49,018 nt of DNA from Campylobacterota bacterium (GTDB taxonomy: Bacteria > Campylobacterota > Campylobacteria > Campylobacterales > Sulfurimonadaceae), in the NCBI GenBank assembly GCA_034717975.1, contig JAYEMF010000029.1, forward strand, positions 4,982 to 53,999, given 5' to 3'. How positions within the stretch are numbered: the stretch's first letter is position 1; every line of letters begins with the position of its first letter. A program made the position numbers. Of the stretch, positions 6,001-12,000 are shown piece by piece.

Positions 6001-9000
6001 CGATTGCACCGATCTATAAACAGCTGCTCGAAGCTGAGTCGCGCGGCGGTGTACAGGCTTCTGAGGCACTGCTCAATGAGACGCTGGCCGAACATGGTGT
6101 GAGTTATGACGAGTTTATCATTAACTTGCAAAAAGATATTCGGGTATAGGGGACGAGATCATGACAAACATTAAAAATCCAACGGTTATCGTTTTACTGC
6201 TGCTTCTGCTTGGAGCTGCGATCTATCTGGGTGTTACCGGTCACATACTTGTTGCGGTGATCCTGGCGGTCATTGGGCTGGGTGCACTCTTTATCCCCTC
6301 AGCTGCACAGTCACCGGCTTACAGCACTGATATCCTCGATCAGATCACTTCGGTAGTCGGTGATGCCAGAAACGGCAAACTCTCCAGCCGTGTTATTTTG
6401 GATCATAACGAGACACAGCAGGAAAAAGTCGCCTGGGCGATCAACGACATGCTCGACCAGACCGAGGTGATCTTGCGTGAGACCCGTTATACCATCGATG
6501 CTGTCAGCAATGGAAAAATGTATCGCAGTATGTTTCCTGAAGGGCTGAACGGTGAGTATAAAGATACGGCCAATGCCATCCAGAGGGCGATCGCTTCGAT
6601 GAAAGCCAATGCACGTTACCAGCTGATGGGGGTTCTGTCTACCGAGTTTGCCCAGCTTAACGGCGGTATTAAAGGAAGTCTGGATGTCATTACGAATGAC
6701 ATCAATCGGACTGAAGTGGCATTTAACGAAGTGACTGAAAACACCACCACTTCAGCTGCCTCGGCGTCTGAGACCTATAGCGCCGTTCAGCAGACCAACC
6801 AGGAGATCGCCAGTCTGAGTGAACTGGTCATCGATACGGCAAGTGCCATTGAACAGATGAGTACCAATGTCAATGATATCTCCTCTGTAGTCAACCTGAT
6901 TAAAGATATTGCCGACCAGACCAATCTGCTTGCGCTCAATGCCGCCATTGAAGCGGCGCGTGCGGGTGAGCATGGTCGAGGGTTTGCCGTAGTCGCCGAT
7001 GAGGTACGTAAGCTGGCTGAACGGACGCAAAAAGCGACGGGCGAGATCAGTATCACGATCCAGAACCTTCAGCAGCAGTCCAGCGGTATCTCTGAAAATG
7101 CCGACAGTATGAATACCATTGCAACCAGTGCCAACTCAACGATGGAAAATTTTGCCGATGTCATGAGCGGTTTCACTACAGATCTCTCCGCTACCAAAGG
7201 GCTTTCCAATCAGAGCAGTTTTGGACTGCTGATGTCCATTTACAAGATCCACCATATTCTCTACAAATCAAGTGCCTACTCGGCTGTTACCAACGGCAAT
7301 GTGCGTGAAGAGCTCTTCGCCGATGCCAAGAGCTGCGGTTTCGGTATGTGGTATTACGGTGCCGGTGCGAGACTTTTTGGCAATTTGCCGACATTCAAAC
7401 AGATGGAAGTCCACCATCTTGGTATTCATGATCTTATCAATGGTAATCTGGATTGTATCAAAAACAGTGGATGCGCTTCCAAGGGCGGCAAAGATAACAT
7501 TGTCGCCGATTTTGCCAAAGCGGAAGAGCACTCCAATCAGCTCTTTGCCCTGATGGACAAGCTTGTCAGCGAAGTGGGTTCCAGCGTCGATATGAAAGCG
7601 GTGCTTGAAGGGCATCATTAGGTTCTACGCGATAAAATTACTTCACTTAATGATATGAGATGGAGTAGAAGATGCAGGTCGAATTTTTAGAAGTTGAGAA
7701 ACCCTCCAATGTAGCGGTCTCCGCTGCGAGGACCTGTTATTTCCCCAACGGTATTGTCCCTCCTGAAAAGAGTGATGCGTGGTCCCGTAAAGATGATCTC
7801 TTAAAGGGTATCTTCAAAGGGGGTCACCACACCACCCTTCAGCATACGCACATCACGATGCTCATCTCCGATGTCAGCCGTCACCTTATCTGGCGATTTC
7901 TTCATGGCCATCCCTACTACAACTCCGAACAGGTCTCCCAGCGCTATGCCAAGATGAAGATTGAAAACTTTGTCTATCCGGAAGAGGGAGACAGAAGCGA
8001 GTGGGAGACGTTCTACCAGGAGCGTTTTGAGGATTATGAGAAGCTGATCGAGATCCTCTATCCGGATGTCGAGGCTGTAGTACCGAAGTTTCGCCGTAAA
8101 GATACGGGCAAAAAAGCGCAGGAGATGGCGCGTTACGTTCTTCCGGGAGGGATGAGCGCCTACCTCTACCATACGGTCAACATCATTACCCTGCTTCGTT
8201 ATATCGCCGTGGCCAAATCGATGCCGGAGTGCCGGCAGGAGGCGCAGGAGCTGGCCGATATGTTCGCCGAAAAACTTGTGGAGCTAGACAGCTCGCTTGC
8301 CCCTCTGGTTGAACATGCGCAGCAATCCTCCCCGAATTTTCCGACTTTTGATATGCAGGGTCTGAAAAGTAAGATCGGGCTGAAGCACGAACAGGTTAAA
8401 GTCTATGATGTTGTTGGTGACGCCGCTTTCGATGTCGATGAAAACTATGCCGATGTCCTTCGCTATTCGCAGATGCTCCCTGACAGCGGCGTGCTGGGCG
8501 GTTTCAGCACCTACATGAAGCTTTCGCTCTCTGCCGATGCCCAAAACCAGCGCCACCGCCGTTCACCGGCTGTCCGTCCGGCAATGGAGGCCAACTATGA
8601 GCGCTCTTACTACATCCCGCCGATCATCGCGAAAAATGAGGAGGCGTTAGCGCTCTATAACGCGTCGATAACAGCCAGTTATGACTTCTTTGAAGCACAG
8701 GAAAAGAAGATCGGTTTTGGTGAAGCCGTCTACGCCATCAGCAATGCCCATGAGATCGAACTGATCGAGCGCAACGACTTTACCTCGTTCCACCACAAAG
8801 CGCAGATGCGGCTGTGCTACAACGCCCAGGAAGAGATCTATGACATCGTCTACGATCAGGTCAAACAGCTTCGCGATATGAACGTAGCGGGCAGTGAAGA
8901 GTTGCTGCCGCCGTGTGCGACCCGTTTCAAGATGAAGATCCGTCCGACCTGTCCGGAAGGCGATCACTTCTGCGGGATCAAAGTCTGGAAACTGGATTTT

Positions 9001-12000
9001 AATGACTACAAAAGGGATATCTGATGCGTTATATACTATTTGTACTTACAGCGATACTTTTCATCTCAGGCTGCAGCAGTAAAAACATCCGTGTAAGCGG
9101 GATGATCTGCCCGCCTGGTCACTCCGAGCAGATGGTACACAGCGATTTTCGCGAGTGTCGTGCCTATGATGAGAAAGAAGCAGAGGCGGCAACCTATCCT
9201 AAAACGCTTGAGGGTGAGTGTAAAGAGTGTCTCTTAAAACGCGGCTACAAAATCGACGAATAGTTGTCGGGTTGTTGGCACTGCTGCTCTTTCAAGGCTG
9301 CAGCAACTTCCGTTTCAATGCGACGATGTGTGACCAGATAGCCTCTGATCCGACGCAAACCGTTCCGAAAGAGTGCTATAACTACTCCGAAGAGGAAGCA
9401 GCCAAAGCGTCACTGCCGCCAAAAGAGCCAGAGTGCATTGAGTGCTCCAAACCCGACAAACTCCAATACAGGAAATAGATGCAACCCTATCACCGTTTTC
9501 ATACGATCAATGACGACTTCCGCTCTCCCTATGCCCGTGACCGTGACCGTGTCATTCACTCCGGCAGTTTCCGCAAGCTGGAGTATAAGACGCAGGTCTT
9601 TTTAAATCAGGAGGGTGATTATTTCCGTACCCGTCTGACCCACTCTATCGAGGTGAGTCAGATCGCCCGCTCGATCGCTTCGAACCTTGGACTTGAAGAG
9701 TCTCTGGCGGAAGCGATCGCCCTCTCGCACGATCTGGGGCATACCCCGTTTGGTCATGTCGGCGGCGATACTCTCGATATATGTCTGCGCGAAGCAGGCT
9801 TTGCCAATGGCTTTGAGCACAACTATCAGAGCTTTCGGGTGGTTACCCTCTTGGAGAAGCGCTATCGGGAGTTCAATGGATTAAACCTTACCTTTGCAAC
9901 CCTGGAGGGGATTTTAAAACACTCCTATCCTTACAAAAAGCCATTTTTGAGCGCCAGGATCGATGAGCAGTTTGACCTCTCCAAACACCCTTCCATCGAA
10001 GCGATGGTCGTCGACAGGGCTGATGAGATCGCCTATATGAGCCACGATATCGATGATGGGGTGCACTCCGGCCTGATCAGTTTTGAGACACTGAAAAAGA
10101 GTGCGCTTATCCGGGAGATACTGCAGAAGGTCTATGATGAAGGAATAACGGAGGAGGAGGATGAGATGTTTCGCTACCGTTTCAGCTCCCACTTCATCAA
10201 CCATCTGGTCTATTCGCTTCTGGATTACTCCAAGGGAAAAGTGTCAACCGGAGCTGTTTTGGCTGCGACTGCCGAAGCTTCCGAACCGCTGCCTATCGGT
10301 TTTGATAAAGCTCTTGAGACAGAGATCAAAAAACTGAAAAAGATCCTCTTTCAGGAGCTTTACCAGCATAAGACCATCATGCGGAAGATGTATGCCGGTC
10401 AACAGGCGATCAAGGGGCTTTTCAGTGCGCTGATGGAAGAGCCGAAGATGCTGCCGAAGTATTATGCCAGACAGCTGGAAGAGAGGAACAAACATCGTGT
10501 TATAGCTGATTACATGGCCTCTATGAGTGACAGGTTCGCGATGGAGTTGTTTAGAGAGGTCTACGGGCGTTAGCAGAGGGATTGAGTAAGGGACAACTCC
10601 TTACCCAAAAAGTATAATCTATCGTTTCAGACCGATAAGTGTCTCAAGCAGAGTATCAGAAGTAGTAATCGTCTTACCGTTCGCCTGATAACCGCGCTGG
10701 ATGATGATGAGCTGTGTCAGTGATTTACTGAGGTCGACATTTGAGGCTTCAAGCGCCGAGGACTGCATGAAACCACGTCCGGCAGTTGCCGCCGTACCGA
10801 CAATCGGGTCACCGGAGTTGGCAGACTGCAGATAGACATTACCGCCATCAGTTACGAGACCTTCGTTATTGGCAAATTTTGCCATGGAGATCTGTGCCAG
10901 ACCGAATGAGCGGCCGTTGGTGAATGAACCGACAAGCGTACCGCTCTGGTCGATACGGATACCGATGAGGTCACCACCCGGGAAACCATCCTGGGAGATA
11001 CCGCTGGTCGCACTTGGTCGGTCGAAACTGGTCAGACCGTCAAAGCCTCCGAATGTTCCCAGGTCGATGATGATCGGCTGATCAGCCTGAGACCCGTTGT
11101 TCCCGGTAAAGGCGAAACTGATATCAGGCGAGTTCAGTGCGCCGGTATCGTCAAAGTTGATCAGCTGTGCCGGGTCGTTAAGTACATTTAGTGGTTCAAC
11201 AGCACTGATAACGCCAGGTTTAGGTACGGTTACCGTATAGACCCACTGCTGGTTATCTGTTTTTCTGAAATCGATCTTGACCGTATGACGGCTACCAAGC
11301 GAGTCGAAGATATCGATACTGCTTGAGTGTGTCGCATGGTTGATCGGCTGTGATGCACTGAAACCGCCAGGGTTAACGGTACGGCTAAGCGGTGCCATCG
11401 CTTCATTGAAATAGATGTTTTCTGCATTATTGGTATCGGTTGCACCGGTTACATTGATACGCATGTCGGTAAAGGCAGAAGATGCGGAGTTCTCAACTCT
11501 GAACTCACCCTGTTGAGTGACAGTGGCCGTAACATCACTGCCGACCCCACCGATAATGTTGGCATCAGTTGCAAGCATGCCGCGAAGATCCTCTACTGTT
11601 CGGAAGGTTTGAATTGGGGCGGCATAGATGGTAGTACCATCATTATAGAGATACTCAACAGCAGTGATATCTTGAGCTACTGCAAGACCGGTATCATCTC
11701 CAGCCCCAACAGCAGTGATATCAATATTTTTTGTTGCTGTAGAAGTTCCGATAGTATTGTCGTTGCTCAAAGATATGACATCTGCGGCATCAGCCGTAGC
11801 CCTTACCCCGGTATCGGTAATAAACTGATTGATAAAGTTGGCCATTTCCTGAGCAGTATTAAAGGTAGTTGCACCACTGTTGATGGGTGTGCCATTGAGA
11901 GTAAAATCGATAGCACCACCAGGGATTGTTGCTGCACCTGGCGCAGTAACAGAAGATGAGGTGTAGCTAATCCATACTCCCTGCCCATTCTCAAGTGCCA

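Follow-up and report, generated by a model that had tools for sequence, protein, structure and literature searches.

The thyX gene and its product

The window analyzed here is a stretch of 49,018 nucleotides from a Campylobacterota bacterium, and one gene in it, thyX, is the subject of this study. The features of the gene are as follows, with the evidence for each in brackets.

7672..9024, + strand: thyX, two-domain flavin-dependent thymidylate synthase (ORF of 450 codons plus stop; Pfam Thy1)
7672..8337, + strand: N-half ThyX fold, residues 1-222 (alignment to T. maritima ThyX, structure matches, invariant columns)
7918..7947, + strand: substrate-recognition peptide YNSEQVSQRY, residues 83-92, the S-x-R-Y part of the ThyX motif (sequence, alignment, conservation)
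8338..8394, + strand: inter-domain linker, residues 223-241, short, with one helix (DSSP of the model)
8395..8877, + strand: C-half ThyX fold, residues 242-402 (C-half model, structure matches, alignment to M. tuberculosis ThyX)
8542..8559, + strand: QNQRHR, residues 291-296, the RHR part of the ThyX motif (sequence, conservation)
8809..8817, + strand: R380-L-C382, the equivalent of the dUMP-activating Arg followed by the first Cys of the four-Cys site (conservation, M. tuberculosis alignment)
8878..9021, + strand: C-terminal tail, residues 403-450, with PPC415, C427PEG and FC434G, then KVW (conservation, pattern counts)

A GGAG sequence lies 6 nt upstream of the ATG at 7672 on the + strand. 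The 450-aa tandem ThyX described in the genome-wide survey's note was confirmed by translation of the ORF and by two Thy1 stretches in one frame, and SQRY and RHR were found at residues 89-92 and 294-296 as that note had placed them. In the protein search, Thy1 (PF02511) was matched in 2 stretches with an E-value of 1.6e-39 and 136.1 bits (cut-off 24.8). In the genome search, the two stretches (1.8e-28, profile positions 8-184; 1.4e-10, positions 60-186) lay in the same 451-codon frame, both above the cut-off. The equivalog model TIGR02170 matched residues 9-204 alone and gave 86.3 bits against a threshold of 87.9, a shortfall of 1.6 bits which is attributed to the model having been built for single-domain ThyX. 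An Atlas search with the whole protein returned Thy1 clusters exclusively. Four read runs contain this stretch, all of DNA and all from a single brine-metagenome study (3 being possible sources of this DNA); no RNA run is listed.

Two ThyX folds in one chain

The AlphaFold2 model of the whole protein (450 aa; 89 sequences) has a pLDDT of 96.7 and a pTM of 0.94. The N-half superposes on ThyX structures at Z 14.8-16.1, with an rmsd of 2.1-2.9 over 183-200 residues, slightly better than the Z of 13-14 reported earlier. The fold of the second half, which had previously rested on the Pfam match and repeated secondary structure, was established by a separate structure search. Folded alone, the C-half gave a model with a pLDDT of 94.4, which matched ThyX and PolB entries at Z 14.7, 14.1, 13.2, 13.2, and 11.8, the next row being at 4.4; the best match was 2af6_A (Z 14.7, rmsd 3.6 over 175). 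ThyX entries also occupied the best 30 rows of a Foldseek search throughout. The exclusive matching of the isolated C-half to the ThyX fold supports the earlier proposal of a single-chain pseudo-dimer.

The halves had also been described as having no detectable similarity to each other. This holds for pairwise comparison (best BLASTP E-value 1.4), but their profiles do match (hhalign, probability 93.9%, E 1.6e-7, 101 columns), and this homology at the profile level supports an origin by duplication.

Division of active-site residues between the halves

The contiguous motif RHRX7S(x)RY is absent from each domain: the N-half has LHGHPYYNSEQVSQRY, without RHR, and the C-half has QRHRRSPAVRPAME, without SxRY. 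The motif is complete only when both domains are combined. In the alignment to T. maritima ThyX (chain index offset by 12, checked against the titles of the R174A and E144R structure entries), N-half residues H52, H78, S89, R91, Y92, E151, and R154 correspond to H53, H79, S88, R90, Y91, E144, and R147, while L77, G79, and A181 stand in the places of R78, R80, and R174. H53 is presumably a residue of the flavin/folate site. The C-half displays the opposite pattern. Its Q291, R294-H295-R296, and R380 correspond to Q75, R78-H79-R80, and R174, and equivalents of S88/R90/Y91 and of R147 (V353/Y354) are missing. The dUMP-activating Arg is present as R380, which aligns with R199 when the C-half is mapped onto M. 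tuberculosis ThyX; the N-half has A181 at this position. Among 89 sequences with identities down to 25%, H52, H78, S89, R91, E151, R154, Q291, R294, H295, R296, and R380 are invariant.

In T. maritima numbering, R174 activates dUMP, and S88, R90, and Y91 help methylene transfer (PMC8316439). The subunit to which each residue belongs was transferred from PolB, which is stated to be 38% identical to T. maritima ThyX (PMC5003785). In the PolB complex with 5-Br-dUMP, F79, R82, and H83 come from one monomer and S96', A97', R98', and R166' from its neighbor; E94' is also written as primed, and R86, R193, and Q206 as unprimed. By motif, R86 is equated with R78, R166 with R147, and R193 with R174. Where PolB has R82 as a phosphate ligand (R74 in T. 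maritima), the C-half has A290 instead of an Arg, which counts against the assignment. The residue sets kept by the two halves correspond to those of the two neighboring monomers of one PolB dUMP site, in agreement with the earlier suggestion that the halves are complementary. From this correspondence we infer that each chain has a single live composite site; a pseudo-tetramer would then contain two live and two dead sites.

Distribution and gene neighborhood

Among the best relatives, 118 of 120 are 437-493 aa in length and the remaining 2 are partial records, as noted before. A search for related loci, seeded with a 13-row alignment, extended well beyond these. At least 557 species genomes, spread over many phyla, encode relatives, so the gene is not the clade feature that it had been taken for. 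The two-domain subfamily was defined by a length of 440-600 aa, an N-half SxR[YFW] without RHR, a C-half RHR, and a C-terminal RxC...C...C...C, and the 450-aa ThyX has all four elements in its sequence. So do 127 of 136 full-length cluster representatives (420-620 aa; 14 of the 150 rows listed fell outside this range and were excluded), and QxQRHR occurs in 125 of the 136. The subfamily is unnamed and carries the database label 'FAD-dependent thymidylate synthase'. Two rows with a branch length of 6.2 (L039_442_1743 and L079_1276_2907), probably not thyX, were left in the tree.

Most relatives from other phyla (about 500-530 aa) have a longer insert in the linker region, judging from the alignment and the lengths. 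In two relatives, P0122 and P0168, an intein lies between the N and the S of the substrate-recognition peptide. An in-frame TGA was reported within the Thy1 matches of three genomes; in G009, the one opened, the codon is the stop of thyX itself at the end of the match. Clustering of neighbor genes over 80 loci revealed no conserved partner gene near thyX, and so none that would indicate a redox partner. Going by one example, the second-largest neighbor cluster (16 loci) appears to be a shadow ORF on the strand opposite thyX. None of 42 matching records from phage isolates covers 80% or more of the query; the best 15 of the 42 are hits to the N-half, mostly labeled thymidylate synthase or ThyX.

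Proposed origin and mechanism

The explanation we favor, with moderate confidence, is that this protein is the working dTMP synthase of the cell and belongs to a large subfamily of two-domain enzymes, in which a duplicated and fused ThyX would form a composite site, a pseudo-tetramer, and a metal site held by Cys. One ancestral ThyX gene may have been duplicated and fused, after which the copies would have shed complementary halves of their active-site residues. The canonical dUMP site spans a two-fold interface, at which the 'unprimed' monomer supplies R174, which polarizes the uracil, and the leading Arg of RHR, and the 'primed' neighbor the substrate-recognition peptide E/S/R/Y and R147. 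In the two-domain protein, the C-half retains the unprimed set alone (Q291, R294-H295-R296, R380) and the N-half the primed set alone (Q87, S89, R91, Y92, R154), plus H52. Every such N-C interface would consequently comprise one live and one dead site, and two chains would assemble as a 'tetramer' of pseudo-222 symmetry that has two live sites and probably binds two FAD rather than four. The chemistry is expected to be that of ThyX, with the methylene of CH2-THF transferred to dUMP via reduced FAD. Finally, the extra C-terminal tail would be fastened to the helix bearing R380 by four family-specific Cys through a bound metal.

The invariance of C382, C415, C427, and C434 was borne out in 34 close relatives and also in a diverse set of 89, with identities as low as 25%, and the pattern RxC-x(20-50)-C-x(8-22)-C-x(4-9)-C is present in 135 of 136 representatives. 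A fifth invariant Cys, C22, was rejected as part of the added site; its counterpart in M. tuberculosis ThyX is also a Cys, and it is therefore a general ThyX residue, which leaves exactly four added cysteines. The tail lies mostly outside the canonical domain, the structure 5chp aligning no further than model residue 190 (protein residue 419). A language-model (Atlas) search with the tail gave no usable match. Judging from sequence, the four Cys probably hold a metal adjoining the catalytic helix, and by argument structural Zn is the most likely one.

Alternatively, in line with the idea in the survey's note, the four Cys could be the ligands of a [4Fe-4S] or 2Fe-2S cluster through which ferredoxin or flavodoxin reduces the flavin, making the subfamily independent of NADPH. 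C382 lies two residues past R380, in the segment equivalent to T. maritima R174-H178, which we take to line flavin and substrate, and a cluster in this position could be near enough for electron transfer. The four Cys are isolated, with no CxxC, one precedes Pro (CPEG), and conserved aromatics (F433, W439) stand alongside. Canonical ThyX is itself described as having no dedicated NADPH domain (PMC3498832). Against this, the 80 related loci show no conserved adjacent ferredoxin, flavodoxin, or reductase gene, the subfamily is present in many aerobic phyla, and the literature search found no paper tying ThyX to an Fe-S cluster. The double-length ThyX of C. trachomatis, possibly a member of the subfamily, was reportedly obtained as a flavoprotein, with NADPH used in its assays. 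An Fe-S cluster is considered possible but unlikely on this evidence, and its extended form, in which the enzyme has a redox-active cluster and takes its electrons from ferredoxin or flavodoxin instead of NADPH, with the two degenerate pockets re-used for docking or allostery, is a doubtful speculation. If the Fe-S reading were true, a large share of bacteria would make dTMP via an enzyme with an undescribed cofactor set and electron source.

The assembly could also be smaller than the pseudo-tetramer, the single chain being a pseudo-dimer with one site that never forms a four-domain assembly. The very confident single-chain model (pTM 0.94) suggests that the halves pack firmly together, and one chain contains every residue of both dUMP-binding sets. 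The solved ThyX enzymes are nevertheless tetramers as described in the available literature passages and structure titles, and a lasting monomer is regarded as improbable.

The claim that this is the sole thymidylate synthase was upheld: the genome (completeness 99.91%) has two Thy1 matches, one for each half of this ORF, and none to ThyA. Profile searches of the same genome also gave no match for thymidine kinase or for DHFR (DHFR_1). It is hardly credible that the protein is an inactive relic or a methylase of the ThyX fold with another role, as PolB is for UMP. In favor of this, the TIGR02170 score is marginally below the cut-off, neither half has an intact motif, and PolB shows that the fold can accept another substrate. 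Against it, the genome lacks ThyA and thymidine kinase matches and offers no other candidate for making dTMP, the protein's catalytic residues are all invariant once the halves are combined, and the gene is found across hundreds of species.

Implications

ThyX is a target for antibacterial drugs, and mutants of homotetrameric enzymes have been used to dissect the active sites that its subunits share. The two-domain subfamily offers a natural single-chain heteromer with site residues already sorted into 'unprimed' and 'primed' sets. It is a ready-made asymmetric enzyme for study of the roles of the subunits, the dispensability of half the sites, and the function of the four-Cys site. Many environmental lineages depend on two-domain ThyX alone for their dTMP. 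Chlamydiae, environmental MAGs of which carry it, probably have this form too, and so presumably do the pathogenic members. Results on inhibitors and structures from single-domain enzymes may not carry over to it. The gene at 7672..9024 is itself a further instance of a common, already annotated gene.

Comparison with known systems

A 'duplicated', uncharacterized ThyX of Chloroflexi was called rare by Valas and Bourne in 2009 (PMC3224940), and a Chloroflexota locus (L056) falls in the tree that contains the 450-aa ThyX. The passages of that paper that mention ThyX give no residue split, cysteines, or mechanism. At least 557 species genomes encode this architecture with its split motif and Cys4; the form is not rare, and the survey's view of it as a new form of the enzyme is not supported. 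Neither the split site nor the cysteines are described in the literature searched, and the two-domain subfamily has no solved structure. The design is common across bacteria and hardly studied.

The ThyX of C. trachomatis, which we take to be about 529 aa with two Thy1 domains, appears to be a close parallel. Comparable proteins of 524-531 aa from Chlamydiae MAGs belong to the two-domain subfamily. In searches from P0166 and P0346, the Chlamydiae among the best 120 rows of each were environmental MAGs only, and C. trachomatis was not named there. C. trachomatis ThyX was used in NADPH-oxidase screens (PMC3498832), and chlamydial ThyX sequences are described as too divergent for a 2002 phylogeny (PMC6171736). 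If C. trachomatis ThyX belongs to the subfamily, NADPH activity has already been shown for a relative, but the site architecture has not.

The UMP/dUMP C5-methylase PolB (4p5a/4p5b) shares the ThyX fold, with a Z of 13.2 to the C-half, and differs in being a single-domain homotetramer that prefers UMP and has PolB-specific loops 1 and 2.

The canonical homotetrameric ThyX/FDTS enzymes (TM0449, 1o26; M. tuberculosis, 2af6/3gwc; H. pylori, 3ah5; PBCV-1, 4fzb) match both halves in fold. Their catalytic residues are identical to those found here when the halves are combined, and they likewise serve as sole thymidylate synthase without DHFR. However, canonical ThyX is a chain of about 210-260 aa, whereas here RHRX7SxRY is divided between two diverged domains of one chain, not recognizably alike by BLASTP; about half of the sites are predicted to be dead, and four Cys and a C-terminal tail have been added.

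Two ThyX folds in one frame

The subject gene lies in an uninterrupted frame, with GGAG 6 nt upstream of its ATG.

7672..9024, + strand, thyX, open frame of 450 codons

When the 450-aa protein was searched, Pfam Thy1 matched it in two stretches (1.6e-39). On the genome, the same family matched with profile positions 8-184 (1.8e-28) and again with positions 60-186 (1.4e-10), both in a single shared frame. TIGR02170, the single-domain equivalog of NCBIfam, gave 86.3 bits, slightly below its cut-off of 87.9. Read from the ORF, residues 89-92 are SQRY and residues 294-296 are RHR. 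The arrangement reported in the genome-wide survey's note is thus confirmed, as is the length range of the relatives in the database, where the top 120 comprise 118 proteins of 437-493 aa and two partial records.

The AlphaFold2 model of the full protein, built from 89 sequences, has a mean pLDDT of 96.7 and a pTM of 0.94. The N-half (residues 1-222) superposes on ThyX of T. thermophilus, T. maritima, H. pylori, and M. tuberculosis with Z of 14.8-16.1 and rmsd of 2.1-2.9 over 183-200 residues. The C-half was modelled on its own as residues 230-450 (pLDDT 94.4), and all 30 matches listed for it by Foldseek were ThyX entries, with E near 1e-7. When 48,161 chains were scanned independently of Foldseek, 2af6_A came first (Z 14.7, rmsd 3.6 over 175 residues), with 5chp_A (Z 14.1), 3ah5_A (13.2), the ThyX-fold UMP/dUMP C5-methylase PolB (4p5a_A, 13.2), and 4fzb_A (11.8) also matched; the row after this ThyX/PolB set drops to Z 4.4. 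The ThyX fold of the second half, for which the survey had no structure search of its own, is therefore borne out.

The two halves had been described as lacking detectable similarity. This holds for pairwise comparison, where BLASTP found nothing significant between them (best E 1.4), but not at the profile level, where hhalign aligned 101 columns with a probability of 93.9% and E 1.6e-7. Because the profiles of both halves match, the sequences support an origin of the halves from an old internal duplication.

Proposed division of the dUMP site between the halves

The N-half was aligned to T. maritima ThyX with the chain index taken as the residue number offset by 12, which was checked through the titles of the R174A and E144R entries. 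It keeps H52, H78, S89, R91, Y92, E151, and R154, equivalent to H53, H79, S88, R90, Y91, E144, and R147 of T. maritima, and has L77, G79, and A181 at the positions of R78, R80, and R174. In the C-half, Q291-N-Q-R294-H-R296 was matched by motif to Q75-W-F-R78-H-R80 of T. maritima. According to the family profile alignment, R380 corresponds to R199 of M. tuberculosis ThyX, i.e. the R174 equivalent, and V353 occupies the position of M. tuberculosis R172 (T. maritima R147).

In PolB, as described in PMC5003785, 5-Br-dUMP is bound across two monomers, with F79, R82, and H83 contributed by one and S96', A97', R98', and R166' by its neighbour. The ribose O3' is contacted by E94' and R86 and the pyrimidine by R193, R98', and Q206, and E94/S96/R98/Y99 form the "substrate recognition peptide". 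This peptide is equivalent to E86/S88/R90/Y91 of T. maritima, and the offset makes R86 of PolB the first Arg of RHR; judged from motif spacing, R166 and R193 of PolB would be R147 and R174. R174 activates dUMP, and S88, R90, and Y91 aid methylene transfer, as stated in PMC8316439.

Since the ligand sets of the two PolB monomers match residues of the C-half and the N-half, the residue split in two-domain ThyX appears to track the subunit boundary of one dUMP site. The set of one monomer ("unprimed") would be retained in the C-half and that of its neighbour ("primed") in the N-half. These sets complement each other solely N-to-C, so the site-forming interface would have to be an N-C pseudo-two-fold, with one live and one dead pocket at every interface of this kind. 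Two chains would build an assembly of four domains in which two sites are live.

Distribution of the two-domain form

Searching 1.84 billion cluster representatives without a profile yielded 881 relatives, 164 of them with E <= 1e-30; the best 150 of the 881 are mostly 440-600 aa long with two matched stretches. Motifs were counted in the 136 of these 150 that have 420-620 aa. SxR[YFW] was found in the N-half of 133, with RHR within the 20 preceding residues in none of these, and RHR was found in the C-half of 131. All four pattern elements occur together in 127. Confirmed relatives are present in at least 557 species-representative genomes. The 80 loci retained include Campylobacterota, Acidobacteriota, Planctomycetota, Verrucomicrobiota, Nitrospirota, Bacteroidota, Ignavibacteriota, Chlorobiota, Gemmatimonadota, Myxococcota, Chloroflexota, Omnitrophota, and one Woesearchaeota bin, and further relative searches added Elusimicrobiota and Chlamydiae bins. 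The survey's picture of a pseudo-dimer with complementary halves agrees with the two ThyX folds and their complementary residue sets; its claim of a new form specific to one clade does not survive this spread across many phyla.

A quick 55-row tree, which includes two long-branch rows that are probably not thyX, unites the 11 Campylobacterota rows and the window protein in one clade on a long branch (SH-aLRT 100). The form is compact in Campylobacterota and reaches about 500-530 aa in most other phyla, where a longer insert separates the two halves. Thy1 is present in 120 of 121 sampled Campylobacterota genomes, and the two-domain form of about 450 aa in nine, the window's genome counted. Five genomes from two other genera of Sulfurimonadaceae carry single-domain frames of 281-291 aa, and the remaining frames are mostly 207-255 aa. 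One of these Sulfurimonadaceae genes, a 277-aa ORF (genome G010, contig C1, locus L083, 421..1254), has contiguous RHR...SxRY. These other genera encode single-domain ThyX where the window's genome has the two-domain type, so one form substitutes for the other inside a single family.

Three genomes belonging to one genus (G009, G033, and G092) were flagged for an in-frame TGA within their Thy1 matches. In G009 (locus L085, 361..1248) it lies at the match end and is the gene's own stop codon, closing a 295-aa canonical ThyX.

P0122 (748 aa) and P0168 (840 aa), two relatives of the two-domain type, contain an intein-like insert with a Cys start, an HN end, and an HNH-like stretch, which falls exactly where N meets S in the recognition peptide of the N-half (YYN/SEQxSQRY, slash at the insertion point). 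They agree with Liu and Yang 2004, who, by their title, reportedly dealt with a ThyX with an intein.

Sole route to dTMP and gene neighbourhood

The assembly (2.52 Mb, 149 contigs) is 99.91% complete. Profile searches of it found no Thy1 beyond the two halves of the thyX ORF and no match to ThyA, thymidine kinase, or DHFR_1, and all controls were positive in the expected model genomes. The gene thus stands, as the survey had it, as the only thymidylate synthase gene. With no other Thy1, ThyA, or thymidine kinase, two-domain ThyX must act in this role and is the predicted working enzyme of the cell. The absence of DHFR fits a ThyX-only cell.

The neighbouring genes are as follows.

within 4168..7621, - strand, double-receiver GGDEF response regulator
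within 4168..7621, PAS protein
within 4168..7621, methyl-accepting chemotaxis protein with CZB zinc-binding domain
9024..9263, + strand, putative lipoprotein, 79 aa, signal peptide, lipobox ISGC
9227..9478, + strand, putative lipoprotein, 83 aa, signal peptide, lipobox FQGC
9479..10573, + strand, HD + HD_assoc protein
10619..12685, - strand, flgE, flagellar hook gene

Signalling genes thus occupy the upstream side, and flgE lies downstream. The two putative lipoproteins directly 3' of thyX are paralogous, each with several conserved Cys; the start of the first overlaps the thyX stop (TGATG), and the second has no Pfam family. A similar 78-aa ORF is also found 3' of thyX in a related locus (L003). 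The HD + HD_assoc protein is presumably dGTP triphosphohydrolase-like. Its gene begins immediately 3' of the second small ORF, so that thyX, the lipoproteins, and the nucleotide hydrolase seem to form a single tight cluster. A similar HD gene lies 3' of thyX in 4 of 80 related loci, for example in a Sulfurimonadaceae bin (L006).

A putative metal site

None of C382, C415, C427, and C434 varies among 34 close relatives or among 89 relatives with identity down to 25%, in agreement with the survey. C382 lies two residues past R380 on the catalytic helix, and the other three lie in the C-terminal tail, most of which extends past the canonical ThyX domain. The spacing RxC-x(20-50)-C-x(8-22)-C-x(4-9)-C is found in 135 of 136 full-length representatives. 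In the family-profile alignment, M. tuberculosis ThyX also has a Cys at the position of C22, which marks C22 as a general ThyX residue, so the subfamily-specific cysteines number exactly four.

Being invariant and so spaced, these cysteines suggest a putative metal site, and the chances are about even that the metal is structural Zn. An Fe-S cluster held by the same cysteines and drawing electrons from a donor other than NADPH, as the survey had raised, ranks lower and seems rather unlikely, since no redox-partner gene is conserved near thyX among 80 related loci, two-domain ThyX is frequent in aerobic phyla, and chlamydial ThyX reportedly behaves as a plain flavoprotein using NADPH. Structural Zn is tentatively favoured for these reasons.

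Comparison with known ThyX

Among the PDB entries searched, none is a solved structure of two-domain ThyX, and the best profile matches are single-domain ThyX. In the literature searched, Valas and Bourne 2009 (PMC3224940) was the only paper found to name the form. Nothing describing the split site or the cysteines turned up in these searches, and some earlier ThyX papers may bear on novelty. For chlamydiae, published texts state that an NADPH assay was applied to C. trachomatis ThyX (PMC3498832) and that chlamydial ThyX sequences are divergent (PMC6171736). The window gene is a further member of a common, annotated, and mechanistically undescribed variant of ThyX. A candidate member of this variant among known systems is the enzyme of C. 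trachomatis, which reportedly has about 529 aa and two Thy1 domains and is said to have been assayed with NADPH.
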